Positions 14,241 to 56,409 of a stretch of 64,000 bases of DNA are shown piece after piece. The stretch is taken from contig OY970340.1 in NCBI GenBank assembly GCA_963717465.1, positions 2,368,001 through 2,432,000 on the forward strand, written 5' to 3'. This stretch comes from Candidatus Bathyarchaeota archaeon. GTDB lineage: Archaea; Thermoproteota; Bathyarchaeia; Bathyarchaeales; Bathycorpusculaceae. Numbering within the stretch: the stretch's first letter is position 1; each line of letters opens with the position of its first letter. The notes under the pieces were generated by a model, which was not told where the DNA came from, did no database searches, and saw nothing but the letters and a program-made list of their open reading frames with translations. Both the position numbers and the translations under genes were made by a program.

Positions 14241-15746
14241 TTATTGTCCGTATTTTTTATTAAATTCGGCTAATGCTGCCTTACGTTGTTCGATAAACGT
14301 TTGAAGCTCTATTTTGGCCTTTTCTGTATTATCAACTATGTCATCAGCTTTAGTTTTAACAGCTAAATTAGAATCACCTGTTTTTTCAAGCGATCCTTTA
14401 ATTTCTTCAGCTTTCTTCTCAACCGCTGCTGCGGCATTACTCATATCACCCGATATCTTTGATGCTTCCTTAACATCGTTAACAACCGTTTCAGTCAAAT
14501 CTTCAACATTCTTTGCGATGACCGCCACATCTTTAGCGATTTTCTCCAGCTCCTGAGCAGCAGACGTTTGCTCCTCAACCGTAGCAGAAACCTCCTCAGA
14601 AGCAGAAGAACTCTCCTCAGCAATACTAGCAACCTCATTAATCGTCCTAACAACACTATTCAAAGCATTAAGACCACGATCAACACCCATCGTCAAGTGG
14701 CCTACTTTACTAGTCATCGTATCCATAATCTTAGCAATACCCTCAGCCTCCTTAATCGCATCCAAAACCACCTTCGTACCTTCAGCCGCATTAGTCTGAG
14801 ACTGAGTAGCAATAACATTAGTCTGCGTTCCTGCATCTTTAATTCCCTTCACAAGGCTGATGGCTGATCCTGCAGCTACTTTTGATTGACCCGCTAAACC
14901 TTTAACGGCATCAGCAACAACCGCAAAGCCTCTTCCAGCTTCTCCTGCTCTAGCCGCCTCAATCGCCGCGTTCAAAGCCAACATATTAGTCTGACCAGCA
15001 ATATCCGAGACGGAATTAGCCATCTGACCAACCTGCTCAACACTATTAACCATCGAAACCACCGCATCAGAAACCTTCGTTATATTAGTCTTAATATCCT
15101 CAATAGCATGCAAACCCTGCTGACCCTTCTCATTAGCATGCTTAGACTTCCTCAAAGCCTCATCAGTAACCAAAGAAGCCTCCTTAGCAATACCACCCGC
15201 CTCATCCATAACCCTCTTCAAAGCCTCAGTACTCTTAGCAGCCTCCTGAGAAAGCTCAGCCAACTTCTGTGCCCCAGTAGAAACCTGCTGCGATGCAGTG
15301 CTAACCTGCTGCATGCCTAAAGATATCAAATTAGACGTCTTCTCTACTTGTTTGCCCATATCCTCAACGCTAACACCAGCCTTGGCAACATCCTGTGCAC
15401 TTGTTAAAGCTTTTTGTGCATATTCACCAACTGTCTTTGCAGAATTTGCAAAATTAGAGACTAATGTTGAAGTTTCTATTGCAAGCTCCGCAGTGGCAAG
15501 AGTTGTTGAACCATGCTCCATTATATCTTCATCAATTCCCTTGGCAGAATTAATTGTATCTTCGCTATTTTTGATAATTTTTTCAATAACTTGAATTATC
15601 CCCTCAAACTCTTTCACATGATATTGTAAAATCTCTTCCTTCTCAGTTTGAAGCTTTTTGTTTTCTTGGACAAGCTGCTCTAACTGGCGTTCGAGCTCTG
15701 AAACTTTATTTTCCTGAGATTCAGCGGCCATTTTAATCAAATCCAA
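14241..15746 (-). CDS. soluble methyl-accepting chemotaxis-like protein (MCP1)
   Basis: Signalling hairpin [27 protein letters not shown]; no TM segment. Confidence 0.9.
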
Positions 15747-26655: not shown

Positions 26656-27048
26656 TTACGTGGAATGGAGCCAAGTTGTTCTAATTTCTTGAATCTGGCT
26701 AAAATGTGGGTCATCTGAAATGCAAATTGCTCCCAGCATTAACGCTGTAGCAGCTATCATACTGTCACCCATTGAGAGATTGTACTTATGCCTTAATTCA
26801 GCAGAGATTTGGGCAACCTGTTCGTCTACTGATAATACATGGAAATCTTTCATGATTAATGCTACTCTAAGTTTAGCTGTTTCTTTTCCTTCTCGGGCAA
26901 GGCAAATTTGGAATAATTCGTGAATGGATATCGCTGAAATGTATTTTTCTCGGTATCTTTTTTCCTCTAATATTTTCGGATAAATTTTTTTATCTTTAGA
27001 ATAGAAAAGCTCGACAAAGAATCTGGTGTCGTATACCTTTCTATTCAT
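26656..27048 (-). CDS. PIN-domain VapC-type toxin
   Basis: VYDT..F, HE, LSMGDSMIAATA, SDDPHF; overlaps the antitoxin stop. Confidence 0.88.
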   Translation of the reverse strand: MNRKVYDTRFFVELFYSKDKKIYPKILEEKRYREKYISAISIHELFQICLAREGKETAKLRVALIMKDFHVLSVDEQVAQISAELRHKYNLSMGDSMIAATALMLGAICISDDPHFSQIQEIRTTWLHST

Positions 27049-27271
27049 CTTCTTCCCTTAGTTTATCAAGCAACTTCTTCATTTCTTCTGGAGTTGCGTA
27101 CTTTGAGCCTGAACCGATCATATCCCAAATTGACATTTTGGGCTTGAGCAATATGCCTTCATTTGTATCAATTACTTCAAGCCTTGTTCCTTCTTCAATT
27201 TTGTATTTTTTGCGAAGGTTTACAGGAATAGTTGTCTGACCCTTTCTTGTTACTACAACTTCATTTTCCAA
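27041..27271 (-). CDS. AbrB/MazE/SpoVT family antitoxin
   Basis: VTRKGQTTIPVNLRKKYKIEEG. Confidence 0.9.
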   Translation of the reverse strand: MENEVVVTRKGQTTIPVNLRKKYKIEEGTRLEVIDTNEGILLKPKMSIWDMIGSGSKYATPEEMKKLLDKLREEDE

Positions 27272-28704: not shown

Positions 28705-28747
28705 GACTAGAGAAAAGAGGATTTAGAAACTGTTCAGGAACTAGAAG

Positions 28748-29011
28748 TTAGAAGTATCTGTTGACGTAGATGATTGATGTGAATCCGCATGTTGGGCAGT
28801 TGATTTTGAACTTGTTGTAGTCGTTTTTTATAAAGGCAGGGTATCCCTCGAGGTTTCTCACAGTTATAATGTAGTCTAGGTTGGGCTCGCTCGTTAGGCT
28901 TTGAATGTTTCTGAGGTTCTTAGTGAACTCGGCTTTGCATTGTGGACAATCTATTGTTACGGCGTCCCCGCAGAACGATTTAAGATAGTTTCCCTGAAAG
29001 GCGATTTTTGC
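28748..29011 (-). pseudogene. 5'-truncated paralogue of the element gene 43590-44129 (double-CxxC protein)
   Basis: Manual translation AKIAFQGNYLKSFCGDAVTIDCPQCK...CPTCGFTSIIYVNRYF*; 58/87 aa identical by hand count; no start codon ahead of the homologous part. Confidence 0.8.
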
Positions 29012-29194
29012 CCCTGTGCAAGCTGAATTTTTTACAAGAAACTCCTGGCTTTGCCATGATTGCCACGACTGCCAGGGTTAAAAATGACTCCGTCGATTAC
29101 AAACATTTGATGTTTTAATAAAAAATCCGCTAAAACCCGCTGAAGAACCCCTTAGAAACTTCAAAAACTACAGTGTCGAATACCATTAGGCAAG

Positions 29195-29268
29195 GGCCGA
29201 GGCAGGGATTTGAACCCTGGCAAAAGGCTCCACAGGCCTCTAGGCTACCAAGCTACCTCACCTCGGCC
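29195..29268 (-). tRNA. tRNA-His(GTG), with genomic G-1 and no encoded CCA
   Basis: (G)GCCGAGG..AGGT AGCTTGGT AGCCT A GAGGC CT GTG GA GCCTT TTGC CAGGG TTCAAAT CCCTG CCTCGGC C cloverleaf. Confidence 0.93.
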
Positions 29269-29347
29269 ACTTTTCCATGCCAAACAATGTCTTCGGCCGC
29301 TTTTCACTAACTTCAGCTTAAGCTTCTTAAGTTTCATAGCATCGCCT

Positions 29348-30667
29348 TTATTTTCTTTTACGGAAGATTTTTCCTCCATCATTGTACTCTCCTGTAATAT
29401 ATTCGAATCCTACCTCGATTAGTTTGCATGCGTCTTCAGCGGTAAATGCCAAGCGTGTTATGAATTGGTCATTCGGCAAGGTTTTAAAGAGGTTCTTTTC
29501 CAGTTGAACGTACAGCCTGGTGTTTTCTATGTTCTTATGGCCAAGGAATTCAGCAACAAGAAGGATATCCGGTGTGTAATGATAGAGCATTGTTCCTTTC
29601 CAATACCTAAAAGTATGCATGTGAATTTCTTTAAGGCGTGGATTCCCAAGTCTGAAAGCTAATTTATTTCTAGTCCTGCAGAGTTGATTCTTCAGCACAT
29701 TCAATGTCATTTTGCCAAATACTAGCTCACTATCTCGCGGCAAATTGCTAAGCATGTTAAGCAGTTTTCCGCTCAGATCGCTAAAGATTCTCGCGTTACT
29801 TCCTTTCTCGGGACAATTGCACATTATAACTCTTCTTTCTAAGTCGACGTCTTTCCAAGGAAGAGCAATAACTTCGCCTCTTCGCATTGCAGTTTCTTTA
29901 AGCAGTTGCAGGAAAGTGGCCAGTATATTCGGTGATCCAGCAATTAGATCGTCTATTTCTTGCTCGGTTGGAATAAATGGGTTTTTGCGGATAATCTCAT
30001 ATATCGGTGCGTCCCAAGATAGCCCAATGAACTTTAAGAAGTCAGTGTAAGCATTGATCACGTTTCTTTTTCGGCTGCCACTCCAAATTTTACCATTGAA
30101 AGCCGTTTCTATGTTGGACTGTTTTGCTATGACTTCTTTCACTGTTTCAGGATCTGCCAGGTTAGCGCCTCTAGAGATCAGCGTTCTTAAAACTGAGCTG
30201 CTTAAGCGTATGGTCGAGTCCTTGTAGCCTTGAAGCTTCATTTTAACTTCAAATTTTAATAGCATGCCTTTGACGTCTTTTTCATCACTCGCAACAGTCT
30301 TAAATTCTGCTGCGGTAGCCAAATTTTTCGTTGTCTCCTTTTTCTCCTCAACATCAACGCATATTTGGCGATTGCTTCTTTGCCCTGCAAACCTTAAATA
30401 ATTTTCCGAGAACCTACGCCCGCAATCAGTACATTTTAGAATACTTGTTTGTTTACCATCACCAAGCTTTCTTGAGCCATTATGCACTGTTCTGATACTG
30501 CCACATTCAGGACACTTTAAATCGGCTGTAACCTGAAGGTTTCGGGTAGGCTGAAGTTCATTTGGGAGCGCCTTAGCGTCGACTTGGAGGCGGCCAGAAT
30601 CAACGCTACTGCCAGAGCCTAAGAAGTGGTTAGCAAGCGCTTTTCCCTGAGCTTCAACCTCAACCAA
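29348..30667 (-). CDS. tyrosine recombinase/integrase with N-terminal zinc ribbon
   Basis: MRRGE (R), EKG (K), HTFRY (HxxR), LGH, TRLY (Y); CPEC..CTDC N-terminal to the core. Confidence 0.92.
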   Translation of the reverse strand: MVEVEAQGKALANHFLGSGSSVDSGRLQVDAKALPNELQPTRNLQVTADLKCPECGSIRTVHNGSRKLGDGKQTSILKCTDCGRRFSENYLRFAGQRSNRQICVDVEEKKETTKNLATAAEFKTVASDEKDVKGMLLKFEVKMKLQGYKDSTIRLSSSVLRTLISRGANLADPETVKEVIAKQSNIETAFNGKIWSGSRKRNVINAYTDFLKFIGLSWDAPIYEIIRKNPFIPTEQEIDDLIAGSPNILATFLQLLKETAMRRGEVIALPWKDVDLERRVIMCNCPEKGSNARIFSDLSGKLLNMLSNLPRDSELVFGKMTLNVLKNQLCRTRNKLAFRLGNPRLKEIHMHTFRYWKGTMLYHYTPDILLVAEFLGHKNIENTRLYVQLEKNLFKTLPNDQFITRLAFTAEDACKLIEVGFEYITGEYNDGGKIFRKRK

Positions 30668-30861: not shown

Positions 30862-31113
30862 TTACAGTTCTGCATTCAGCCCCAGCTCCTTAAATTCTGC
30901 TGCCTTTTCAGCCCATTCTAGCCATTTTTTTGTTTTTCCTTTTCCGTTACAAATTCTTTCAGTGGCAAGGTGGTCTTTTCTGGACAAAACTGGACAAAAT
31001 CCGACAAAATCCAACACTGTTATTGCGTTACATGCAAAATTTGCTAATCTCGCATACCCCCGTTTTCCCTCAAAATACCACAAATTCTTAGGCTTACCGT
31101 TACAGCATTGCAT
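30862..31113 (-). CDS. hypothetical element protein
   Basis: Overlaps neighbouring ORFs in a co-oriented run. Confidence 0.4.
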   Translation of the reverse strand: MQCCNGKPKNLWYFEGKRGYARLANFACNAITVLDFVGFCPVLSRKDHLATERICNGKGKTKKWLEWAEKAAEFKELGLNAEL

Positions 31114-31514: not shown

Positions 31515-33479
31515 TCAAGCGGCCTCTTCTATTGGATCTTTATCTTCAAAACTTACACCTTCAGGATAAGCAGCCTTCCAAACTGCATTGTTGAATTTCT
31601 TTTTCAAATCATTAAAGCATGCGTCACATCGTCTAAGAGTATCCTTTTCTGGGGTTACTATTTCCTTAGTAATTGCAAGTTGACTGCAGGCTTCACATTT
31701 TTCCCCGTCCTTAATTTCCTTAACCCAAAAAGTCGGCTTTGTAGCGAGTGTATCGAGTGTATCAGGTGGGTATATACTCTTATTTTTAGATTCTTCACTA
31801 CTCTCTATTTTAGAGAGAGTAATAGGAGTCGCTACAGTCGCTACAGTCGCTACAGTCGCTACAGTCGCTACATCTAAGCTTTTCTGAGATGCCTCGCTTT
31901 TTTTAGCATAAGTAACATTCATGTAAACATGAATTCCTGCTTTTCCGTCGATTCTTTGTGTGGTTTGGATGACTTGAGGAATTTGCTTTGTTAATTCTTG
32001 AGTAAATTGTCCTTTGTTCCTTGGGGCTGCTATTCCGCTTTCAGCGCACCATAGGCCAACTTTTGACCATAGCTCTTTTTCTGGAATGAATTGGTTTTCT
32101 TCATAGCGTAAGTTTGATTCTATGAATGCTTGTGCTGGATTTGAGTTTTTAACGTATTTTTCTCGATTTTCTTCTATGTTCTCGTTCGCGCTAAAGCAAC
32201 CATTTTCTAATAATCGTTTTCTTCCTTCTAAAGCCCAATTAAGGAACCCTGACATTTCCTCTTCGTTTTCAGCCAGTTTATCAGCTAATCTTTTGATTTC
32301 ATTTACGCCTGGTATAAACTGCTTGTTGAAAGCGATTAGATTTTGCCTACGGTACCAGGCGTCAGTGTCATCGTCACTGGGTGGCAGCTGGTTGCAACTA
32401 TAGAATTGTTTAGGCAGGTCATCAGGGTTTGCTGTGAAAGGTTGACCATACTTATTCTGCATTGTCATGGGATCATCCCCTGACATCATTTTTGCGTTGC
32501 CAGTTGCAGAGATTTTTGTTTGTGGAATATCTCGACCTAAATTGACTAGTTTTCTGTAGCAGGTTGCTCTCTCGTATTTGTCATTGCATAATGCTTGAAG
32601 TGTAACATTTGATACGTTTTCGGGTCCTACGAGATAGGTTATTAACGTTAAAACTTGGCCTTTTCCATTGCCGCCTCCTCCAATAAAAATTGTTATTTTA
32701 TGAAACAACATTCCACGGATGAATATGTTTCCTATCGCTTCCTGGAGTAACGGAAGTTGTTTCTCTCCTACGATTTCAGTGAAGGCTTTAAGAATTTGAG
32801 GGCATTTAGCATTAGGGTTAAATTTATGGGGTATTTTGATTGTAGTATATTCGTTCGGTGTTGGATTTATCAGAATGTTTTTCTCTAAATGCAAAAAACC
32901 ATTTTTAACGCCTACGACAGCGTTGCTTGGTTTTATTTCTTCTAAAGTTATGCTTTTCAAGCAATGAAGCGTATTTTCATACAAAGCCTTAGTGTTGCGA
33001 TCACCTATGATTTTTGGCAGTAATTCCTGTAAATAAGTATCACCATCATTGCGCCAAATTCTTCTTTCGGCATCATACCTGCTTAATTTCCCTGTATCTC
33101 GATCAGTTTTGAAAAGATAATTAACGCTGATATCATTAGCGATTTCTTGTGCCCTTAAGGGGAGCTCTTTAATGTCTTCATTTGAAGTTACAGGCATTTG
33201 AATGTAAGTTTTTGGATTAGGATTATATTTTTGTTTTAAAGGTTCGTTTATTTCTTCTTTACATTCTGGACATGCCCAAAGGTTAGGTTGTCCATTATCA
33301 GTATATCCTATAATTCGTAAAAGCTTGCCTTCTCTTGGGCATACATCAAACTCAAAATGCTCTGCCTCTTCTTCATGAAGACGATTAAGCGCTTCTTCAT
33401 GTTCAGGATTAAATTCTTTTGGCAGTCCCGTGGGGATATCGGAAACAATTGGGTTTGGTTGCGGTTGCTCTGTCATCAC
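31515..33479 (-). CDS. phage/plasmid D5/P4-family SF3 helicase (replication protein)
   Basis: D5_N-like region (VGVKNGFLHL), Walker A GGGGNGKG, motif C FYSCNQLP, AWYRR; N- and C-terminal CxxC pairs. Confidence 0.85.
   Translation of the reverse strand: MMTEQPQPNPIVSDIPTGLPKEFNPEHEEALNRLHEEEAEHFEFDVCPREGKLLRIIGYTDNGQPNLWACPECKEEINEPLKQKYNPNPKTYIQMPVTSNEDIKELPLRAQEIANDISVNYLFKTDRDTGKLSRYDAERRIWRNDGDTYLQELLPKIIGDRNTKALYENTLHCLKSITLEEIKPSNAVVGVKNGFLHLEKNILINPTPNEYTTIKIPHKFNPNAKCPQILKAFTEIVGEKQLPLLQEAIGNIFIRGMLFHKITIFIGGGGNGKGQVLTLITYLVGPENVSNVTLQALCNDKYERATCYRKLVNLGRDIPQTKISATGNAKMMSGDDPMTMQNKYGQPFTANPDDLPKQFYSCNQLPPSDDDTDAWYRRQNLIAFNKQFIPGVNEIKRLADKLAENEEEMSGFLNWALEGRKRLLENGCFSANENIEENREKYVKNSNPAQAFIESNLRYEENQFIPEKELWSKVGLWCAESGIAAPRNKGQFTQELTKQIPQVIQTTQRIDGKAGIHVYMNVTYAKKSEASQKSLDVATVATVATVATVATPITLSKIESSEESKNKSIYPPDTLDTLATKPTFWVKEIKDGEKCEACSQLAITKEIVTPEKDTLRRCDACFNDLKKKFNNAVWKAAYPEGVSFEDKDPIEEAA
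31740..31872. repeat. five 9-bp tandem repeats (AGTCGCTAC) plus three degenerate inverted copies; candidate origin
   Basis: 31827-31871 perfect x5; 31740-31766 TGTAGCGAG/TGTATCGAG/TGTATCAGG; AT-rich spacer with palindrome 31800-31820. Confidence 0.85.
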
Positions 33480-34004: not shown

Positions 34005-36608
34005 TCAGGGCAGATTAGCGAACCAAGTGTTTCCTTGGCGTGCTGTAACTTCAAGTGCTGTCAATCTGTCTCTTAGAGCTCTACTGATTGCTGCCCCGCC
34101 CTGGTCTTTGCCGTAACTCCAAAGTTGAGTTTGATACTTCTGAGCTACCGGAACAAGATCTACTTCTACACGGTGAAGCCAGCCACTTTCAGGCGTTTCA
34201 CGATCAAGTATGTGATGGATTTTTACAAAACGGTAATTCGGCGATGTGCTTGATATGCCCCATTTGTCAACGTTCAAAGTCACTGAAGCGCCAGGAAGCA
34301 TAGCCCAAGCGTTACTGACGAATCCGCAATCTCCAGTAGCCCAAAGAGTTATTTTTTCAAGCGGCGCTTTCCTTTTTTGGTAAATGCTGTTTGCGTATGC
34401 TGATGCTTCAAAGAAGGCTCCGAAATCACTTTTAGTAATTGGTAATTGACGTTTACCAAAACCATTCGGGTAAGTTACGCCGTTAATAGTGTATGGTGAA
34501 TTAATGTTTGTAGGGTCAGGGTCAGAGGGAGATTGATTTGCCCAATATGCGACGGCTACAGGCTGCACGTTAGGAATCTGCAAGTTATCAATTAAGACAT
34601 ACTGCAATGTTGGATTGGAAGGTTCATCAAATGTGAAACGAATCGCCGTTATTTTCCATGAAAAGCCTGAGCCTTCAAGTTGAACCCATTTTGGATAGCT
34701 CCCCACTGGATTAATAAGTTGAGTTGGGCCACATGGAACACTTATACTATTCCATGCCGCGCCATCCGTAAGAAGATTAGGAAGATTAGGCGTGTAACCG
34801 ATCCAGTTTCCAGCATCATCCTTAAGGCTTAACCACCATTGAAAATGATCGTTTGGTGTTGTATCATGGGCAAAGAGGTCAAAAGTTATGTTTACAGGCA
34901 GTGTCAGTTGAGAATAGTCAATTTTGTTTATTCCGTAAAGTGGAAAGTTTAATTGGCCGCCGGCAAATGTTCCGTTACTTTCAGGGCATTCAATTGATGC
35001 TACTCCTGCAGAGGGAGCTATTGGCGAAGACTGCTCATAATCTATTGGTTGATTGCTTGTTGTCTGAGAGCCTCCACTTGGGTTAACTGTGTCAACGAGA
35101 CTGCAGGTTGCCCAGACTGAAGCATTCTGTTCTGTAAAAAGGTCGTCGCTGCTTAAGTCTAGCAAAACAATAATGTAGTTTCGCAGGTCTAAAGCGTCAG
35201 CGTAAGCGCGTTCAGCATATTTGATAAGATTGTTGCTTGAGTTTCCAAATATGCAGTTAAGTTGAATTCCGCTTGCTTGCTGGTTGCCTGAGCCATCATG
35301 AGGGAACATGTGGAAAACGCCGTTAGAATCAACGTAACCGCTGTAATCAATCAAATCAAAGATGTCTCGAATGCAATCTGTGAGGTATTTTCCTTCAGGT
35401 TCATAAAGAATTTGGGGCGCTGTTGAAGGCGAAGTAAAAGAGACGGCGGCGCCTGATTGAGAAAACAATGTTGCTATTAAATCATCAGCTTTTACTTGTG
35501 CTTGTGAAAGTACTGTTCCATTGATTACGTTTTGAAGAGTTTGAGCGCGATCTCTTCCTCTATATTCAGCTAAAGATAAGCATTCATGCTGTTCATCTTC
35601 CATTAGGATACAGATGGGTTGGTCGACGTAGCCAGACATTAAAGGCGCATTATTCTTGCTGATTTGTATTGGAGCGTTTGGGTTTCCACCGAAAACGTTA
35701 GCTCCATTAAAAAAGTTAACTAGGAAACGTCCAGTTATGTCAGTTTCGCTTAGCCACAACTCGATATGCTGAATAAGACTGCTATAATCGGTGCCGCCAA
35801 TAAGTACCTGAGTTGAAGCGTTGTATGCTAAAAATATGGCTTCAAGAGTATGCGTTTGGCCATTGCCACTATACTGAATCACGTAAGGATTAGTTGAACC
35901 GACATTTACGCTATCAAGCAACCAATAATTAAGAAAGTAACCTGGGTTTGGCGTGGTAGTCACGTTAGTATTTGAAGAGATAGTTTGTGTTCCTGAAGGC
36001 GAAACAGAACCGTTTTGGCTTGCAGAAATCGTATATGTGTCAGGTGTAGGAGATGCATCGGCTATGCCGTAGAGTTGAAACCAAAAAGAGGCAAAATTGC
36101 CTGAAGTAGTTTCAGAGCAAGTGTAAGGTGCCCAATTTGATGTTAATGCTGATGCGTTTCCACTATACGCGGCGTTAGCGTCAGCCGACCAAGCCGCATT
36201 ATTTCCTGAGAGGGCAGTGCACTCTATAACAAGAATGTACTTTTTAGCTGCAGCATAAACGTGTGTTCCGCTAAAAGTAAATTGCGCAGTAAATGTTTCA
36301 TCTTCCTCTGGATTAGTCACCGTTACAGGAGCGCTTGTTTCTAAAGGAGCACCTGTTGGAATCATGCTTATTCCGCTTTGCGCAGAAGCTTCATACATGA
36401 CAGCCTTAAGGGTAGCTGAGCCACCACCGTTTTGTGGAGCAATATATAATCGGATGATAACGCGAGTTAACTTATACCAGTTTGGCGGTGCACTTCCCAT
36501 AGGGAGGGCTTGCCCATTTGCGCTACCGCTCGCTGGATAAACCGCACTAAAACCGTTACCGCAATTGTAATTTCCAGTAGTGTAACTTGTAATTAAAACC
36601 TCACTCAT
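34005..36608 (-). CDS. large virion-like protein: beta-rich N-terminus, Ig/InlB-B-repeat-like domain, tail/baseplate-hub-like region with a carbohydrate-binding-like insert
   Basis: YTISASQNGSVSPSG..PNPGYFLNYWLLD repeat-like unit; 'LMSGYVDQ..YRGRD..YVDSNGVFHMFP' resembles gp27/Tal-type hubs (pattern only). Confidence 0.5.
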   Translation of the reverse strand: MSEVLITSYTTGNYNCGNGFSAVYPASGSANGQALPMGSAPPNWYKLTRVIIRLYIAPQNGGGSATLKAVMYEASAQSGISMIPTGAPLETSAPVTVTNPEEDETFTAQFTFSGTHVYAAAKKYILVIECTALSGNNAAWSADANAAYSGNASALTSNWAPYTCSETTSGNFASFWFQLYGIADASPTPDTYTISASQNGSVSPSGTQTISSNTNVTTTPNPGYFLNYWLLDSVNVGSTNPYVIQYSGNGQTHTLEAIFLAYNASTQVLIGGTDYSSLIQHIELWLSETDITGRFLVNFFNGANVFGGNPNAPIQISKNNAPLMSGYVDQPICILMEDEQHECLSLAEYRGRDRAQTLQNVINGTVLSQAQVKADDLIATLFSQSGAAVSFTSPSTAPQILYEPEGKYLTDCIRDIFDLIDYSGYVDSNGVFHMFPHDGSGNQQASGIQLNCIFGNSSNNLIKYAERAYADALDLRNYIIVLLDLSSDDLFTEQNASVWATCSLVDTVNPSGGSQTTSNQPIDYEQSSPIAPSAGVASIECPESNGTFAGGQLNFPLYGINKIDYSQLTLPVNITFDLFAHDTTPNDHFQWWLSLKDDAGNWIGYTPNLPNLLTDGAAWNSISVPCGPTQLINPVGSYPKWVQLEGSGFSWKITAIRFTFDEPSNPTLQYVLIDNLQIPNVQPVAVAYWANQSPSDPDPTNINSPYTINGVTYPNGFGKRQLPITKSDFGAFFEASAYANSIYQKRKAPLEKITLWATGDCGFVSNAWAMLPGASVTLNVDKWGISSTSPNYRFVKIHHILDRETPESGWLHRVEVDLVPVAQKYQTQLWSYGKDQGGAAISRALRDRLTALEVTARQGNTWFANLP

Positions 36609-37000
36609 TCAGGCACCACGCTGCGATAAACGTCTCGCATTTGTTTCTGTTGTTGTCTTTCCTGAGCTTGATTCTGCAAATACTGCTGATACTTTTCCCA
36701 TTCTGCAAAAGCAACCGTGATTAAAGGCATTAAAATTGGTGCAATGATAGGCGCTAGCTCTGGCGCTAATTCTTTTATTGCTTCATGACTAAGAAAATGC
36801 GTCATTGCTTCTGGACTGCGAACAGCACGCGCTCCACGCACCACAGTTCTAGGGCTAACTCCAAAACCTGAAGGTTCCCCGCCTTCACCGCTTTCTTGAC
36901 TACCCCAATAAGCATTATACTGGCTAGGATTCCACTCTTCACTTTCACCGCCAGCTCCTTCACCGGCACCAGTTTCTGAACCGCCAAACGACGTAGCCAT
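36605..37000 (-). CDS. hypothetical protein with a hydrophobic helix and Gly/Glu-rich N-terminus
   Basis: Stop/start overlap with the 867-aa gene. Confidence 0.6.
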   Translation of the reverse strand: MATSFGGSETGAGEGAGGESEEWNPSQYNAYWGSQESGEGGEPSGFGVSPRTVVRGARAVRSPEAMTHFLSHEAIKELAPELAPIIAPILMPLITVAFAEWEKYQQYLQNQAQERQQQKQMRDVYRSVVPE

Positions 37001-37286
37001 GCCTAGTGCCGCCTTCCTGCTTACTCCAATAAGCGTTGTATTCGCCTAACTGCTCAGCTTCTTCATCCGCTTCCAGACTGCAGCCGCAATGGTTGTGAAC
37101 GTTTGCTGCGTAAGAATCAGGGTCTTCTTGCTCTGCGTTTGGGAAAGTAGCCGGAATCGCGCTTTCATTAAACGGCTTATTATCGTACCCGATGCATTGT
37201 TCGCAGTGGTTACAATTCGTGCCTAAATGAAAAGTGAATGGGCGGTCTTGCTTCTGCAAATCCTGATTATTGTCGTTTTCGGTCAT
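36960..37286 (-). CDS. Cys/His-rich protein with a MuF-like CxxC...HxxCxC pattern
   Basis: CNHCEQC...VHNHCGCSL; GGAG RBS. Confidence 0.4.
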   Translation of the reverse strand: MTENDNNQDLQKQDRPFTFHLGTNCNHCEQCIGYDNKPFNESAIPATFPNAEQEDPDSYAANVHNHCGCSLEADEEAEQLGEYNAYWSKQEGGTRHGYVVWRFRNWCR

Positions 37287-43589: not shown

Positions 43590-44129
43590 TTAGAAGGACC
43601 TGCTCGCGTAGACGATTGACATAAAGTTGCAACTGGGGCAGTAAACTTTGAACTTGTGATAGTCGTATCCGATGAATTTTTGGTACTCTTCAAGGGTTTT
43701 AGCATTGATGAGATAGTCCAAGTTTGGCTCGCTTGTTAGGGTTCGTATGTTTCTGAGGTTCTTGGTGAATGTGTTTTTGCATTGTGGGCAGTCTATTGTT
43801 ACGGCGTCCCCGCTGAATAATTTGAGATTAGTGCCTTGGAAGGTTATTTTGGCAGCCGCTAATTTTTCAGTATAGCTAATGTCTGTGACTTGGTTTTGAA
43901 GGCTCTCGTTTTCTTTAATGAGTTGGTCGATTCTTGTTCTATTTTCAGTAACAACTTTGTCGATCTTGGCCTTTTCTGCTGCATAGTCAAAGCCTAATTT
44001 CTCTTTTAGAAAATTAAGGACTACGTTGTCAAAGTTTATGTTAATAGTGAGTAGATAGCTTTGGTCTCTCATTTTCTGAATCTCTTGGTTATTGCCGGCT
44101 ATTCTCGTTTCTATGTCTCTAAAACTCAA
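43590..44129 (-). CDS. coiled-coil plus double-CxxC protein
   Basis: CPQC and CPSC; GGAGGTGA RBS and TATA-like TTTTATAATA upstream. Confidence 0.75.
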   Translation of the reverse strand: MSFRDIETRIAGNNQEIQKMRDQSYLLTININFDNVVLNFLKEKLGFDYAAEKAKIDKVVTENRTRIDQLIKENESLQNQVTDISYTEKLAAAKITFQGTNLKLFSGDAVTIDCPQCKNTFTKNLRNIRTLTSEPNLDYLINAKTLEEYQKFIGYDYHKFKVYCPSCNFMSIVYASRSF

Positions 44130-44278
44130 ATGATATCACCTCCTGTAACGCTACGGTTATTATAAAAAACACTGAAAATCTCGGAAAACCCACGAATAAC
44201 ATGGAAAATCAAGGAAAAACCGAAAAAAAAGGGAAAAGTTACGAGTGATGAATAAAACATGCCAAAAGTGGCGACAAA

Positions 44279-44299
44279 TACCTCACCTCGGCCACTTTT
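44279..44299. repeat. att copy 2 (right end of element A)
   Basis: Identical to 29254-29274; arms AAAAGTGGC (44264-44272) and GCCACTTTT (44291-44299) are inverted repeats. Confidence 0.9.
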
Positions 44300-44373
44300 T
44301 CGTGCGTTGTCGTGATTTATCGACGCTTTATTTGAGGGATGTTGGTTTCCTATGATTGTGTCAGGGTTCTCCT

Positions 44374-44572
44374 TTATTTCCGTTTCCTCATTAATTGAAC
44401 GCCATTAATGACCATGAAAGGCTTAAAACCAACTTCCCTTAAAGCAACCGCTTCTTCAATTTAACTAACAGATTTAATTGTGAGTTTATTGTAAGATAAA
44501 TTCTTGAATAAAGTTTTTCTCAAGCTGAAAACACAACCGAGTTGTATCGATGTCTAATTCCGAGAAATCGGC
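44374..44572 (-). pseudogene. decayed 3' end of a second integrase (element B)
   Basis: Manual translation DIDTTRLCFQLEKN/LFKNL..*IEEAVALREVGFKPF..LMRKRK* matches the intact integrase C-terminus. Confidence 0.8.
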
Positions 44573-44853
44573 ACTTGAAACATAATAAGAGTGACTAAAA
44601 TGACTGGATCCTCAAGAAAGCAATGATTAGTCTATCGAGGTAGTTGTGGATAAGCAACCACAAATCTTTATCTTATGTGAAGAACAAAATTTATAATTGC
44701 TCAGTTAAAAGAAAAAGTGTTTTTTGTTTTTGTTAGCGGCTGATTTGAGTTGAATGTCGTTATAAATACTGGCTTTTGCAACTCGATCGAAGAGTAATGA
44801 GATTTGAGTCTTTTTTTGAATTTGTGCTTAGTTGCGCAAAGGAAAGGTAGAAG

Positions 44854-45303
44854 ATGGAAAGAAAAAGCCTGGTTTTGATTTTAAAGAACGAGTATATAGT
44901 TGTAACTTTAATTATTTTGTTAGCTTTACTTTCTTGCTTTTTCGTTATTACTTCAGGTTTAGTTTTAATTGGATTATTGCAGCTATTCGATTGTTTAGGT
45001 GTCAGCCTTGTTGTTTTGAACATTTTGGATTTGGCGACTACCCAAATTGCCTTATCAAAAGACGGCATAGAAAAAAATCCAATACATAAGAGCCTGAATA
45101 AAACAAGAAATGTCTTAACCCTAAAATACATATTAATCAAAATTGGTTTACCCATCTTTCTAATATTACTATTAAATTGTGCGTATTCTTATGATCCTTT
45201 TGAAATAACACTACTCCTTGATCTAGACTTGGCTTTAATTGCCGTGAACGCACTCTATTGTTACGCTTTTTATAACAATTGCTGCGCCATAAAGGAGTAT
45301 TAA
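44854..45303 (+). CDS. small membrane protein (cargo of relic B)
   Basis: Hydrophobic segments; LNILDLATT..IEKNP motif. Confidence 0.55.
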   Translation: MERKSLVLILKNEYIVVTLIILLALLSCFFVITSGLVLIGLLQLFDCLGVSLVVLNILDLATTQIALSKDGIEKNPIHKSLNKTRNVLTLKYILIKIGLPIFLILLLNCAYSYDPFEITLLLDLDLALIAVNALYCYAFYNNCCAIKEY

Positions 45304-45947
45304 AAATGCAAAAAAAGATTTACACGTTGATTCATATAATTAAATTCAGCGCTCATCGCTTAGAGGTGGAGTTACTTGGCCTATGAAACTTTAGTTTTCT
45401 CTTCCTCACAAAGGCTGCAAGCGTGTGCTTTACTTAATTGTTTTATTCTCAGCATGCCTCTTTTCTTGCTGGCGTATTTATGTAGTGCAGATGCTGGGTC
45501 AGTATTACCAACACATATGGTTTATTAATACTTAAGCCTTCCTCGTAAACGCAAATAGGTGTGACAATGCAAATACAAACGAGTCAATATGAAGTTAATC
45601 CAAAACAAAAAATTCTTGTAGACAACATTATCACTTTTGAAAAGGACATAGAACTTCAATTGAACAAACAGGAAATATGCACCCAAGGTTTTAGACTTTC
45701 AAAAGGAAAGCTAATACCCGGCGTACCCCGCAGAAAGTCAGAAGATTGCCTAAAGTTTTGTGCACTCGACCATTGCGATGGTCTATAAATAACGTACTCC
45801 AAATAAACAAACTATTTGACCATAGTAACAAATGGCAATAACCTCAGGAAACTTACTACTTCTTTCCCTAAGGATTGGTTGCCCGATAAGGATTAAAAAG
45901 GGGAAAAAGTCACAAAGGACGGTTTTAACGTGCCAAAAGGTGGAATT

Positions 45948-45976
45948 AGCTAACTCACCTCGGCCACTTTTCCATG
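45948..45976. repeat. att copy 3
   Basis: 28/29 identical to 29251-29279. Confidence 0.88.
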
Positions 45977-46017
45977 AAAAGTCTTGATTTGGATACACAT
46001 TAGAAATATCATCGCCA

Positions 46018-46095
46018 TTATTTCCTTTCACTGAATATTTTTTCACCATCCATGCATCTTCCTGTTTCACATTCAAAATTCGCTTCAACAAGCCG
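46018..46095 (-). pseudogene. decayed 3' tip of a third integrase (element C)
   Basis: RLVEANFECETGRCMDGEKIFSERK* versus KLIEVGFEYITGEYNDGGKIFRKRK*; shared CATCGCC flank next to the stop. Confidence 0.75.
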
Positions 46096-46820
46096 ATAAG
46101 AATAGAGATGATACTGCCTAAGCGAAAAAAGTCTAATAAATCACTTTGAGAGCACTGCATGATATACTTTGAGATTTACTAATTAGCGAAATAGCCTTTG
46201 CAACAAAGCTTTTTAGCTCCAACTGAGGGTACGATTGAGGGGTAGAGATTACGGTTAAGGGATGGCTAAAAGTCTTATTGCTTCCTTTAATTTGCATTAT
46301 CTGGGTATCTGGATGGATGCTTTATATTGTAGGACAACCACGAGCGCCTAATACTGAGTAAAATCCAAACTTCAAGCGAGCTCCATTAAATTCTTAATAG
46401 CTTCATAAAGAATTTCTTAAATACTAAGACTTTTTGGTCGCGATGAAGATGTTGACAGCATATCTCGATTAAATCACCTTTTTTAATATTGCATTGTTTA
46501 CATATTTTATGGAAGATTGCTGCCTCGAATTTAGCCGACTTGAACGACTCAACCTTAACACCTACGTCATATTCTGATCAATGAGCTCTACAAAAAAGGA
46601 AAAGGTTCCAAGAGAGTTGAGAATCTACAAAAAAAGCTTAGCCACCTCACCTAAGCCTCATTATGATGGACGTCAACGGCCTTTCCGCTATTTACCTTGA
46701 ATCAAAAACGGTGTTATTCCCGCAGCAAACGTGCACGTGCGCGTGTTTGTTTTGAATCAAAAAAGCGCTCCCTTAAATATTTAATCAGTTAAAAATTAAC
46801 TAAGGAAGAATTGATGTTTT

Positions 46821-47153
46821 ATGGGATCAGGTTATGTTAAAGCTGCCACGGCATCAGAAATTCCAGTTGGAAAAACAAAAATAGTAAAATTAGGTGACAA
46901 AGAATTGTTGATAGCCAATGTTAGCGGAAAATATTACGCCATTGATGGTAGATGCACTCATGCTGGCACGTATCTATCCCACTGTGCTTTAGATGGTAAC
47001 GTTGTTGAATGCCCGAAACACTATGCAAAATTTGATGTCACAACTGGCAAGGTAGTTTCTCCTCCACAAATAGCCTTTTCTCCTCCTAAAATAAAAAACG
47101 TAAAATCTTACGAGATTAAGGTTGAAAATGAGGATATTATGGTCAGACTTTAA
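46821..47153 (+). CDS. Rieske-type ferredoxin
   Basis: CTH...CPKH motifs. Confidence 0.92.
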   Translation: MGSGYVKAATASEIPVGKTKIVKLGDKELLIANVSGKYYAIDGRCTHAGTYLSHCALDGNVVECPKHYAKFDVTTGKVVSPPQIAFSPPKIKNVKSYEIKVENEDIMVRL

Positions 47154-47810
47154 AAAGACCATGCGCAGATACGTTGATATATCTTACGACAAGCGAGCGT
47201 TAGCAACTAAGTGAAGCCTCAACATTTTTCCTTTTATTAAGAAAATTGTGTGAAAGCCAGTAAATATGAGTCAGTAGTTGTTTTTAGAAAAAGGCTTTTG
47301 ACGCAACAAAACGAAAGCATTATTCGATGATTTCCTTTATTTTGTGGCGAAATTTGAAAAGAGCTTACAATCTAACCTTAAATATTCATCAGACCGTAAT
47401 CTGTAACATTGTGCTAAAAAAAACATTAAAAAGGAGAGTAAAAATTGAGAACAGGAATACTGCACATAGCAGGTTTGCTCCCCCCTATTGCTACAAGGAA
47501 CAAACTTTAGGGCAATCCATGAAGCTACAATGTTTCCATAGAAAAAGTTGGGGTTGGCGGCGTTACTAATAAGCTTCAAAAAGTCTACAAGGATTCGGGC
47601 TGCACCATCGCTGATGAGAAGAAAAGAGTTGTGAAATACCTGAAAACGTCGCAAAGGAAGGCATAAACGCAATATCTCGTAAGTTCGTTTTGCAGGTTAT
47701 ATTTTTTTACATTTGTCAAAAAGAAGATTAGTAATGGCCAAAAAAAATGGCGGTTAGAATTTAGCTCTGATGTAGACTTGAAATACTCCTTGAAGAATCT
47801 GTTGATTAAA

Positions 47811-49352
47811 TTATGATTCAATCCCTAGAGACTTGTTAAACTCAATTGAAGCCTGAATTTGCTGTTTAAGGTCGTCTAATTTTGTCTTGTATTTTTCTAT
47901 AAGAGCATGAAACTCTGTTTCAGCTTTATTTGCAGTGTTACAAATATTTTGAGATTCTGCGATAATGCTAAGGTTGGCTTTTCCTATTTTTTCAAGAGAT
48001 TCCTGAATTTCTTCGGCTTTTTTGTCTGCATTGGCTCCTTTATTTTGCATGTCAGCTGATATTTTCGATACTCCCTTGACGTCTGTAACAACGTCCTCGG
48101 TTAGTTTTTCAACATTTTTTGCGATAGTAGCAACTTGCTTGGCGATTTTTTCTAGTTCTTGTGAGGCGGCAGTTTGCTCTTCTACTGTGGCAGAGACTTC
48201 TTCAGAAGCGGAAGAACTCTCCTCAGCAATACTAGCCACTTCATTAATTGTCTTGACAACATTGCTTAATGAGTTGAGACCTCGATCAACACCCAGGGTC
48301 AAATTGTTAACTTTACTTGTCATTGTCTCCATTATTTTGGCAATGCCTTCAGCTTCCTTAATTGCGCCTAGAACCACGTTTGTTCCTTCTGCTGCGTTTG
48401 CTTGTGATTGCGTTGCAATAGTGTTTGTTTTGGTTCCTGCGTCTTTTATTCCTTTTACTAGAGTAATTGCTGAGCCGGCGGCCACTTTTGATTGGCCTGC
48501 TAAGCCTTTAACGGCGTCAGCGACAACTGCGAATCCTCTTCCTGCCTCGCCTGCTCTTGCGGCCTCGATTGCAGCGTTCAGGGCTAGCATGTTTGTTTGG
48601 CTAGCTATTTCTGAGACTGAATTTGTTATTTGCCCTACCTGCTCTACGGAATTGACCATTGACACGACGGCGTCAGAAACCTTTGTAATGTTTGTTTTAA
48701 TATCCTCAATTGCATGTAACCCCTGTTGTCCTTTTTCGTTGGCGTGTTTAGATTTGTTTAGAGCCTCTTCTGTTACGGCGGATGCTTCCTTTGCTATGTT
48801 GCCTGCTTCGTCCATGACTTTCTTTAGGGATTCTGTGCTTTTTGCTGCTTCTTGTGAGAGTTCAGCTAACTTTTGCGATCCAGTGGAAACCTGTTGGGAC
48901 GCGGTGCTAACCTGCTGCATGCCCGAAGACATCATTTTAGACGTATTTTCTACTTGTCTACTCACTTCCCCAACAGTGAGGCCGGCTTTGGCAACTTCAC
49001 CTGCACTTGACAAAACTTTTTCCGCATAGTTGCCCGCTTCCTTTGCAGAAGTTGCGAATTCGGTAATCATGCTCGAAGCCTGAAATGCTAGTTCACTGTT
49101 GTTAGCAGCCATCACACCAAAATTCTCAACCAACTCATTGATGGTTTTACTTGAACTATTAATGTAATCAGTGTTTTTGACGGATTCTTCAGCAACTTTA
49201 ATCACTTCATCAAGTTCTTCTGCATGAGATTTCATTAACCCGACAATTGCGGAGTGAAGATCATTATTCTCCTGTCGAAATTCTTCTAATTGTCTTTCAA
49301 GTTCTGAAATTCTCTTTTCCAAAGACTCAAGGGCCATAGTAACCAAATCCAA
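47811..49352 (-). CDS. soluble MCP-like protein (MCP2)
   Basis: MCP signalling hairpin; no TM segment. Confidence 0.9.
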
Positions 49353-54906: not shown

Positions 54907-56409
54907 TTGATAAAAATGACAGTTGAGGCTCAAGAAAACAAAGGCTCAGAACACGAAGAGCAGTTGGATCAACTTGAACAAGAAATCAAGAAGCTTCGAA
55001 CTCAGAACCGAGAAATATTAAAAATATATGTGAAAAAGCTTGAAGAAGCTATTCAAATTGTTGAAAAAACAGTCAAAACCACTGATGATACCATTAACTC
55101 TGCTAACAAGATTAATCAAGATATCATGACACATGCTGAGACGACTGTTGTAACTGCCGAACGTGCAATAGAAGCTTCAAATATAATTGGCAACGTTGCA
55201 ACTTCCGCAAAGGAAGCTGGCAACTATGTACAAAAAGTCTTGATAAGTGCAGAAGATGTTGCCAAAGCTGGCATCAGCGTTCAGGATATGGGCAAACAAG
55301 TGGAAAAAACATCCAACATGATGTCTCTTGGCATGCAACAGGTCAGCACTGCATCACAACAAGTATCTACTGGGGCACAAAAGTTAGCTGAACTCTCACA
55401 AGAAGCAGCAAAAAGCACAGAATCCCTAAAGAAAGTCATGGACGAAGCAGGCAACATAGCAAAGGAAGCATCCGCCGTAACAGAAGAGGCTCTAAACAAA
55501 TCTAAACACGCCAACGAAAAAGGACAACAGGGGTTACATGCAATTGAGGATATTAAAACAAACATTACAAAGGTTTCTGACGCCGTCGTGTCAATGGTCA
55601 ATTCCGTAGAGCAGGTAGGGCAAATAACAAATTCAGTCTCAGAAATAGCTAGCCAAACAAACATGCTAGCCCTGAACGCTGCAATCGAGGCCGCAAGAGC
55701 AGGCGAGGCAGGAAGAGGATTCGCAGTTGTCGCTGACGCCGTTAAAGGCTTAGCAGGCCAATCAAAAGTGGCCGCCGGCTCAGCAATTACTCTAGTAAAA
55801 GGAATAAAAGACGCAGGAACCAAAACAAACACTATTGCAACGCAATCACAAGCAAACGCAGCAGAAGGAACAAACGTGGTTCTAGGCGCAATTAAGGAAG
55901 CTGAAGGCATTGCCAAAATAATGGAGACAATGACAAGTAAGGTGAATACCTTAACGAACGGCGTTGACCGAGGTCTCAACTCATTAGATAATGTTGTTAG
56001 AACAATCAGCGAGGTAGCCAGCATCGCCGAAGAAAGTTCTTCCGCTTCTGAAGAAGTCTCTGCTACCGTCGAGGAGCAGACATCAGGCGCAAAGGAGCTG
56101 GAAAAAATCGCTAAACAAGTTGCAGTTATCGCGAAAAACGTTGAGAAATTAACCGCGGATGTTGTTAACGACGCTAAGGAAGCATCTAAAATATCAGTCA
56201 ATATTGGAAATGACGCCACAAACGTCGAGAAAAAAGCCGAAGAAATTAAAGCATCTGTTGAAAAAACAAGTGAAATCGATTTAGCTCTTACAACACAAAC
56301 TAGCGAAATAATTGAGAATAATAAAAAATCTAAAGCAGAACTTCAAACTCTAATTGAACAATGCAAGGCAGCAATAGCGGACTTAAGAAGCGCTGAAACA
56401 AGTTCATAA
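54907..56409 (+). CDS. soluble MCP-like protein (MCP3)
   Basis: MCP signalling hairpin; no TM segment. Confidence 0.9.

Follow-up and report, generated by a model that had tools for sequence, protein, structure and literature searches.

The tRNA-His gene of a Candidatus Bathyarchaeota archaeon (contig OY970340.1) is preceded directly by the integrase gene of a mobile element that integrated at the 5' end of the tRNA, which raises the question of what now drives transcription of this likely essential gene. The original prediction for this locus proposed that the element must supply the leader and promoter of the tRNA, either through a pair of TATA-like CTTAAG hexamers or by read-through from the integrase gene, and that the resulting dependence could stabilise the element. 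We examined these proposals in a 64,000-nucleotide stretch of the contig, hereafter called the window, in the rest of the genome, and in related genomes, viral contigs and metagenomes. Coordinates refer to the window unless they are given with the prefix G000:C1, which denotes the whole contig.

A tandem array behind the tRNA-His gene

The tRNA-His(GTG) gene is intact and lies on the minus strand at 29194-29267, with a genome-encoded G-1 at 29268. It is present in single copy, being the sole tRNA-His among 48 ARAGORN calls in this 3.05-Mb single-contig genome, and Rfam matched the tRNA alone at the locus. The integrase ORF (29348-30667, minus strand) stops 80 nt from position +1 of the tRNA on the same strand, as had been predicted. 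A duplicated core covering the first 14 nt of the tRNA, G-1 and the leader had also been predicted and was recovered exactly: the attR core at 29254-29274 (minus strand; tRNA nt -7 to +14) is repeated over 21 bp with no mismatch at 44279-44299 (minus strand), 15,025 bp away, where the second tRNA-His 5' fragment forms the attL of the youngest element. The array does not end at this correctly recognized partner, and two further copies on the minus strand had gone unlisted, namely fragment 3 at 45948-45976 (1 mismatch in 29) and fragment 4 at 46641-46657 (3 mismatches in 17), which is probably the outermost attL and is followed by a T7 tract. A genome search with a 17-mer at up to 3 mismatches gave 6 sites, 4 of them in this array. 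The true att site does not appear to be a 3' tRNA repeat, as the acceptor-stem 3' end of the gene has no second copy in the genome when searched with sliding 18-mers, and 2-mismatch matches to anticodon/T-arm 18-mers were scattered, some in other tRNA genes, with none within the window.

An integrase C-terminal remnant precedes each of the inner fragments, about 50 codons long before fragment 2 and degenerate before fragment 3, and the locus is therefore a tandem array. Its order toward the tRNA is a divergent Rieske ferredoxin gene (46821-47153, plus strand) that is probably the host flank; fragment 4; the oldest remnant, A (45977-46640, about 0.7 kb, minus strand), with its degenerate integrase tail at about 46018-46100; fragment 3; the older element remnant B (44300-45947, about 1.7 kb, minus strand), ending in the 50-codon integrase tail at about 44374-44526; fragment 2; element C (15,025 bp); and the tRNA itself. 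Decay in the array grows with distance from tRNA-His, a gradient that matches the insertion of each newcomer at the rebuilt tRNA gene. As integration took place at the 5' end, the DNA ahead of nt -7 all belongs to elements. This stretch of element or remnant DNA extends from nt -8 over about 17 kb, and the tRNA-His gene has been cut off from its former promoter. The spacer at 29275-29347 is likewise not plain host sequence, because relatives that retain similar sequence retain it together with an integrase tail.

Several other features lie in the neighbourhood of the array. Just 3' of tRNA-His, positions 28745-29011 hold the 3' half of a homologue of ORF 43590-44129 in the same orientation (73% at the nucleotide and 66% at the amino acid level), with no accompanying 3' tRNA fragment. 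Downstream of the tRNA, a PIN-domain toxin and a MazE-type antitoxin (26656-27271) are located between a dehydrogenase and a class I tRNA synthetase of the W/Y type. A repeat at 47253-47697 looks non-coding, has about 20 partial copies genome-wide and is perhaps a small mobile element or remnant. Three related genes with a chemoreceptor-like MCP signalling domain (14241-15746, 47811-49352 and 54907-56409) occur in direct and inverted arrangement.

Element C and its integrase

The integrase of element C is an intact protein of 439 aa with an N-terminal CxxC zinc ribbon, and its sequence places it in the tyrosine recombinase/integrase superfamily. The Phage_integrase domain (PF00589) was found above the cut-off (E 1.2e-15), and residues R262, K288, H351, R354, H377 and Y386, which we take to be catalytic from what is established for tyrosine recombinases, are invariant among 33 aligned relatives. 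The nearest structures are XerA/XerC-like. Identity as the chromosomal XerA was rejected, the NCBIfam model NF040815 giving 72.8 bits against a cut-off of 220.

Also encoded on the minus strand of element C are a P4/D5-like primase-helicase (31515-33479), whose gene contains VAT repeats with a 9-bp unit occurring about five times at 31827-31872, and three ORFs (34005-37286) whose homologues form part of a block of virion genes at another place in the genome. An 867-aa protein among the products of these ORFs resembles a tail/baseplate protein (scores 0.85-0.87), which we note as a lead only. The first ORF inside attL (43590-44129, minus strand) encodes a zinc-finger-like protein of 179 aa. No capsid, terminase or portal match to Pfam or PHROGs was found among the element C proteins scanned, and with the tail-like lead as the sole indication a complete head-tailed provirus was rejected. 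Because capsid and terminase genes went undetected, the most fitting description of element C is that of a defective provirus or cryptic element.

Attachment site and crossover

Element C is bounded by a direct repeat of tRNA sequence, with the integrase inside and a 5' fragment upstream, which is the arrangement of a site-specific tRNA-integrated element. For the 12 attL/attR pairs examined, from 11 loci, the shared sequence ends at nt 14 nine times, at nt 16 twice and at nt 11 once. In the modelled attP, a 9-bp perfect inverted repeat puts 15-bp half-sites around tRNA nt 9-14, and from this repeat and the nt-14 boundary we infer that the strand-exchange overlap is at nt 9-14 (29254-29259), at the junction of the acceptor strand and the D stem. 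The right half-site, which includes the 9-bp perfect part, is located in the P' arm at 44264-44278 (minus strand) and is inverted relative to nt -7 to +8. A second, degenerate left half-site lies at 29291-29305 (minus strand; 11/14 match at -36); it is probably an integrase-binding repeat, and the block is conserved in an alignment of 15 arms. The metagenome contigs L168 and L170 share 2,338 nt at 100% identity as far as nt 14, beyond which one of them enters tRNA-His and the other a P' arm. Such junction-type contigs in relatives fit tandem insertion.

The two arms differ in their T tracts. The P arm, which is now the leader region of the tRNA (29275-29347, minus strand), has no run of five or more T residues, and the P' arm carries a T8 tract (44223-44230, minus strand). 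Archaeal transcription terminates at oligo-T tracts, and the T8 tract is accordingly a probable terminator. A T run of at least 5 occurs in all 11 P' arms (96-nt windows; background 27-37%) and in none of 55 P arms (26-91 nt; background 15-24% for 50 nt), which points to a probable terminator beyond the crossover and to no obvious stop between integrase and tRNA.

An ATG at 29335-29337, 10 nt past the integrase stop, starts a frame that runs through the att site. In the attP model this frame encodes 78 aa, and its stop codon overlaps with the beginning of the following ORF (44127-44130). The frame is often kept in relatives (49-77 aa) with varying peptide sequences, and it may represent either a gene that integration cuts in two or a by-product. 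In the P' arm, 50-60 bp of the sequence at 44165-44224 recurs at 8 other genome sites, one of them right after a tRNA-Thr, possibly as a dispersed arm motif. Viral contigs were also searched for a free attP; a single-protein scan gave 1 distant locus with nothing informative, and an alignment scan gave 9 loci, 5 of which ended at the integrase stop and none of which was informative.

The integrase family and its tRNA targets

Adjacency to tRNA 5' ends, which the original prediction had proposed to survey among homologous integrases, proved to be common. The 168 loci consisted of 79 genome loci (from the best 80 of 537 hits), 9 viral-contig loci and 80 metagenome loci (the best 80 of 578), a sample in which close relatives of the query integrase are over-represented. 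At 95 of the 168 the integrase faces a tRNA 5' end, which is a full 5' end 26-94 nt from the integrase stop in 82 cases and a 5' fragment or cut tRNA in 13. The remainder face a tRNA 3' end (32), run off the contig (19) or do neither (22). Among the 54 genome and viral 5' cases, with gaps of 26-91 nt, the target is His in 29, Phe in 8 and Ser(GCT) in 8, the other 9 being single calls, and the anticodon is in some instances doubtful; the same integrase tail is found at integrase loci before Phe, Ser, Met, Gly and Pro tRNAs. Of the 7,999 proteins scored, 2,404 belong to the family at E 1e-20, with the target known for the fetched loci only. At three loci (L205, L231 and L241) a third geometry was seen, in which a tRNA 3' half follows the integrase stop on the same strand. 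Another locus, L083, was considered as the published provirus BATPV1 and rejected because the coordinates differ.

Two changes between 5' and 3' types are needed on the integrase tree (FastTree, 112 rows, unrooted), from which 33 of 145 rows were left out as unclassified. The 3'-type integrases face the reverse complement of the acceptor-stem 3' strand, and this sequence resembles the 5' strand. The symmetry of the acceptor stem may thus allow an integrase to switch between the two ends.

The present genome holds further traces of the family. Four broken integrases (G000:C1:909888-910783, 1553460-1553769, 2103963-2104895 and 226628-226861) lie behind a tRNA-Val on the same strand, in convergent orientation to the 3' ends of tRNA-Cys and tRNA-Ala, and ahead of a 3' tRNA fragment. 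Integrase tails lie at the 5' ends of two more tRNAs, at G000:C1:837152-837255 (minus strand) and 2316394-2316504 (plus strand); ARAGORN calls these genes Thr and Ile (with introns), probably wrongly, because at the 5' end they correspond to the Phe and Gly tRNAs of relatives. A 5' fragment of tRNA-His that extends to nt 14 stands alone at G000:C1:232855-232875 (minus strand; L140), 2.16 Mb from the gene, with a promoter-like site of 8.0 bits upstream, and is possibly an attL stranded by rearrangement. Several of the tRNA-His matches from which the loci below were drawn lie less than 300 nt from a contig end, as expected for an integration hotspot.

A motif retained from the integrase tail

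As a standard for promoter scoring, a native BRE-TATA matrix was built from the regions upstream of 40 tRNA genes of this genome (median 8.2 bits in leave-one-out scoring and 2.5 for random sequence). A canonical promoter in the spacer was rejected as the rule for the family, since the 54 5'-type loci had a median of 3.8 bits, with 14 at 6.4 or more, versus a median of 7.7 bits, with 19 at 6.4 or more, for 29 control tRNAs (one of them itself a tail stub).

The loci at which the element has decayed point elsewhere. We collected 112 tRNA-His loci, one per genome, from a subset of matches; 4 had too little upstream DNA, which left 108 informative loci. A substantial integrase is present at 19 of these, a tail stub alone at 54, and neither at 35, using a strict stub pattern with a false-positive rate of 0.13%. 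Integrase or stub is therefore found at 73 of the 108, and in the window's own genus, for which all 20 matching genomes were taken, at 16 of 18 informative genomes. In 25 stubs the integrase match was from 18 to more than 400 nt long and ended at the stop every time. The nearest upstream ORF was divergent at 13 of the 24 stub loci with an ORF call, though such orientation calls are crude.

An unbiased Gibbs search covered the 67 loci at which no integrase HMM coverage was seen, 9 of 111 having been left out. It recovered GAAAACGTAAATAA, the DNA of R-K-R-K-stop, at 8 bits or more in 50 of the 67 (3% for shuffles), in genomes that are not independent and with many rows that may stem from few old insertions; the motif is absent from the other 17. 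Its start falls at -58 to -50 in 31 of the 50 motif-positive loci, so that the motif mostly lies about 54 nt upstream of tRNA-His, which is the native promoter position. Retention is selective, for conservation drops about 7 nt upstream of the motif in decayed loci and persists there in 35 integrase-bearing loci. Compared with the native matrix the motif gives r 0.58, the 99th percentile of a null taken over fewer shifts than were scanned being 0.53. The BRE half fits (5.0 bits in stubs vs 5.0 in control tRNAs), whereas the TATA half scores low (median -2.8 bits in stubs vs 3.7 in control tRNAs). A drift of the stubs toward a stronger native promoter score than that of intact genes was not seen (p 0.12 and 0.51, values that overstate because the genomes are related).

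Of the 48 tRNA calls in this genome the tail motif marks exactly three, each of which has an integrase tail, and the remaining 45 lack it. Across the family it reaches 10 bits or more in 43 of 54 5'-type tails and in 3 of 12 3'-type tails (7 of these 12 belong to one clade), and it is thus not exclusive to 5' types. In the window, the candidate tRNA promoter occupies the last integrase codons, R-K-R-K-stop, at 29346-29361 (minus strand), and combines a BRE-like element with an atypical TATA. This copy is a weaker variant that lies at -94 and scores 11.0 bits on the stub motif and -1.1 on the native matrix. The promoter-like motif of remnant B (44372-44387, minus strand) scores 17.7 bits and that of remnant A 4.0, and precise excision of element C would leave tRNA-His behind the tail of remnant B with its motif. 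A separate TATA-like sequence, TTAATATT, is found in the KDNLIF codons of one clade (8 of 37 loci) and is absent from the window's clade; it has been kept at a few loci that lost RKRK and may be a second promoter option.

Proposed mechanism and alternatives

We consider it probable that tRNA-His is driven by a promoter that is dual-coded in the integrase tail at 29346-29361 and has been domesticated by the host. A Bathyarchaeia tyrosine integrase would recombine its attP with tRNA-His nt 1-14, displacing the former promoter together with a 14-nt fragment whose transcript would be stopped by the oligo-T tract of the P' arm. The rest of tRNA-His would thereby be fused to the end of the integrase gene, and a replacement promoter inside the last integrase codons would give a leader of about 20-60 nt, presumably removed by RNase P. 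Each new element would enter the rebuilt tRNA, leading to the tandem arrangement A-B-C with the youngest beside the gene, and as an element decays selection would retain the tail motif and some leader only. The original prediction is supported in that integration is at the 5' end and the leader is element DNA, with the better promoter candidate falling immediately beyond the interval it had named, in the closing codons of the integrase. Its suggestion that dependence of the tRNA stabilises the element does not agree with the excess of stub-only over integrase-bearing tRNA-His loci, or with the loss of two element bodies in the window itself. Host selection appears to act on the last 20-120 bp only.

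An alternative that we regard as unlikely is that tRNA-His is transcribed mainly from the integrase operon by read-through, or, once the element has decayed, from promoters that happen to lie upstream, and is released by RNase P, the tail motif being kept for some other reason, for example as a protein-binding site. The window would permit this, since no T run of 5 or more occurs from the integrase start region (30702) to the tRNA and native-type promoter sites are present upstream at 31100 and 31486. The lack of T tracts in all 55 P arms and the ATG that in many loci opens one frame through the att site would also suit read-through, and recombinant tRNAs of pTN3-like elements are said to use the integrase promoter (PMC8371274). 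In this genome, read-through out of the integrase operon may add to tRNA-His expression, and to that extent the original prediction may hold. It cannot be the general answer, however, because stubs of down to 18 nt survive beside unrelated, often divergent, upstream genes, where the tail motif is the sole conserved part; moreover, an intact integrase that was constantly expressed would be expected to favour excision.

Rather less likely still is that the motif is the ancestral tRNA-His promoter of these families, captured by the integrase as its last codons. Many of the loci that we call decayed would then be true empty sites, and the element would carry a mere copy. The position of the motif at the native promoter distance is compatible with such an origin, as are its likeness to some native promoters (the tRNA-Lys(TTT) site scores 8.6 bits), the many loci without any other integrase trace, and the fact that the tree is unrooted. 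A host promoter of tRNA-His would not, however, be expected as the same tail at integrase loci before tRNAs of other specificities, and decayed loci often retain the preceding Phe/Leu codon bases and an element-type half-site repeat. The motif is also missing at five non-target tRNA-His genes (families f11 and f5), which have native-type sites at -49 to -54. Finally, it is most improbable that the promoter is the CTTAAG pair, which exists at 29317-29322 and 29326-29331, about 10 nt from where it had been placed: the two TATA-like hexamers do lie 50-65 nt upstream, inside the native distance range, but they were rejected as TATA boxes because they score at chance level (2.6 and -0.4 bits on the native matrix, 2.6 being the peak of the whole tRNA-His upstream region) and occur in 1 of 15 aligned homologous arms, and the dependence that they were to create has not kept element bodies in most relatives.

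If the retained integrase tail is indeed the promoter of tRNA-His, mobile DNA has lastingly rewired a housekeeping gene that is essential to a lineage abundant in sediments. This would be a clear case of promoter domestication in which the same bases code for both protein and promoter. A short 5' site of this kind would also tend to escape searches designed around 3' repeats.

Comparison with known systems

The Mesorhizobium element of Zhao and Williams (2002) is reportedly a case of 5' displacement. In the Islander collection 159 of 3,919 islands have 5' fragments, which makes this a known minority mode, and tandem arrays are known as well (PMC4383910); elsewhere 5'-distal integration is described as considerably less frequent, with 1 case among 39 (PMC6563490). 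Targeting of the 5' end has been regarded as rare and, within archaea, as nearly confined to pTN3-like integrases (PMC8371274), whereas it predominates among the members of the present family that were sampled.

The pTN3/TKV4-like suicidal integrases of Thermococcales use an attB located within the 5' portion of a tRNA gene, with an att of 41-43 bp that reaches the anticodon and splits the integrase gene (PMC5495485, PMC8371274), and they have been called unique in archaea for targeting the 5' half, with sites of 40-50 bp (PMC8371274). The present element has in common with them, as far as they are described there, the 5' attB and a rebuilt tRNA that is severed from its own promoter and reliant on element DNA. 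Unlike the suicidal pTN3/SSV type, the integrase ORF here is whole and the att site lies 73-93 nt past its stop; and in contrast to the 40-50 bp att of the SSV/pTN3 type, which extends to the anticodon loop, the site is 21 bp long and ends at nt 14. The pNOB8 type, compared by description, resembles our element in having an intact integrase beside the reconstituted tRNA on the same strand, and differs in its att of 40-50 bp as against 21 bp (PMC3293823, PMC8371274). No archaeal plasmid or virus relatives of the integrase were found at E 1e-5 in plasmid and phage collections, which possibly do not include pNOB8.

Similar in geometry are two single cases, the Caldiarchaeum tRNA-Thr insertion (PMC3293823) and CalSub-E1 (PMC6563490), in which a 5' fragment lies upstream, an intact recombinase is found by the rebuilt tRNA on the same strand, and fragments were later scattered. 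The likeness is one of geometry, and subsite mapping, promoter analysis and a lineage-wide scar are absent from the parts of these accounts that we consulted. The crossover subsites listed by Islander are the anticodon loop, the T loop and the T/acceptor junction (PMC4383910); the nt 1-14 crossover described here is not among the three and looks like the mirror image of the T/acceptor junction. In the parts of two papers on Bathyarchaeia viruses that were available (PMC10848311, PMC11705971) we found no analysis of 5' att sites, and their supplements may list such sites. No report of an nt 1-14 subsite or of a retained integrase-tail promoter was found in literature searches outside subscription papers.

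Our combined reading has two parts, and we would give about even chances to both being correct together. The first is that in at least three Bathyarchaeia families the tRNA-His promoter has been replaced by one coded in the last five codons of an integrase, and that in this genome the same has probably happened at two more tRNAs. The second is that tRNA nt 1-14 constitutes a novel subsite outside the three listed, with switching between 5' and 3' ends by way of acceptor-stem symmetry. Targeting of tRNA 5' ends is known from pTN3 and Caldiarchaeum; what is new here is the combination of an undivided integrase, a site of 21 bp that stops at nt 14 and use across a family, and most likely also the widely retained integrase tail as a tRNA promoter.
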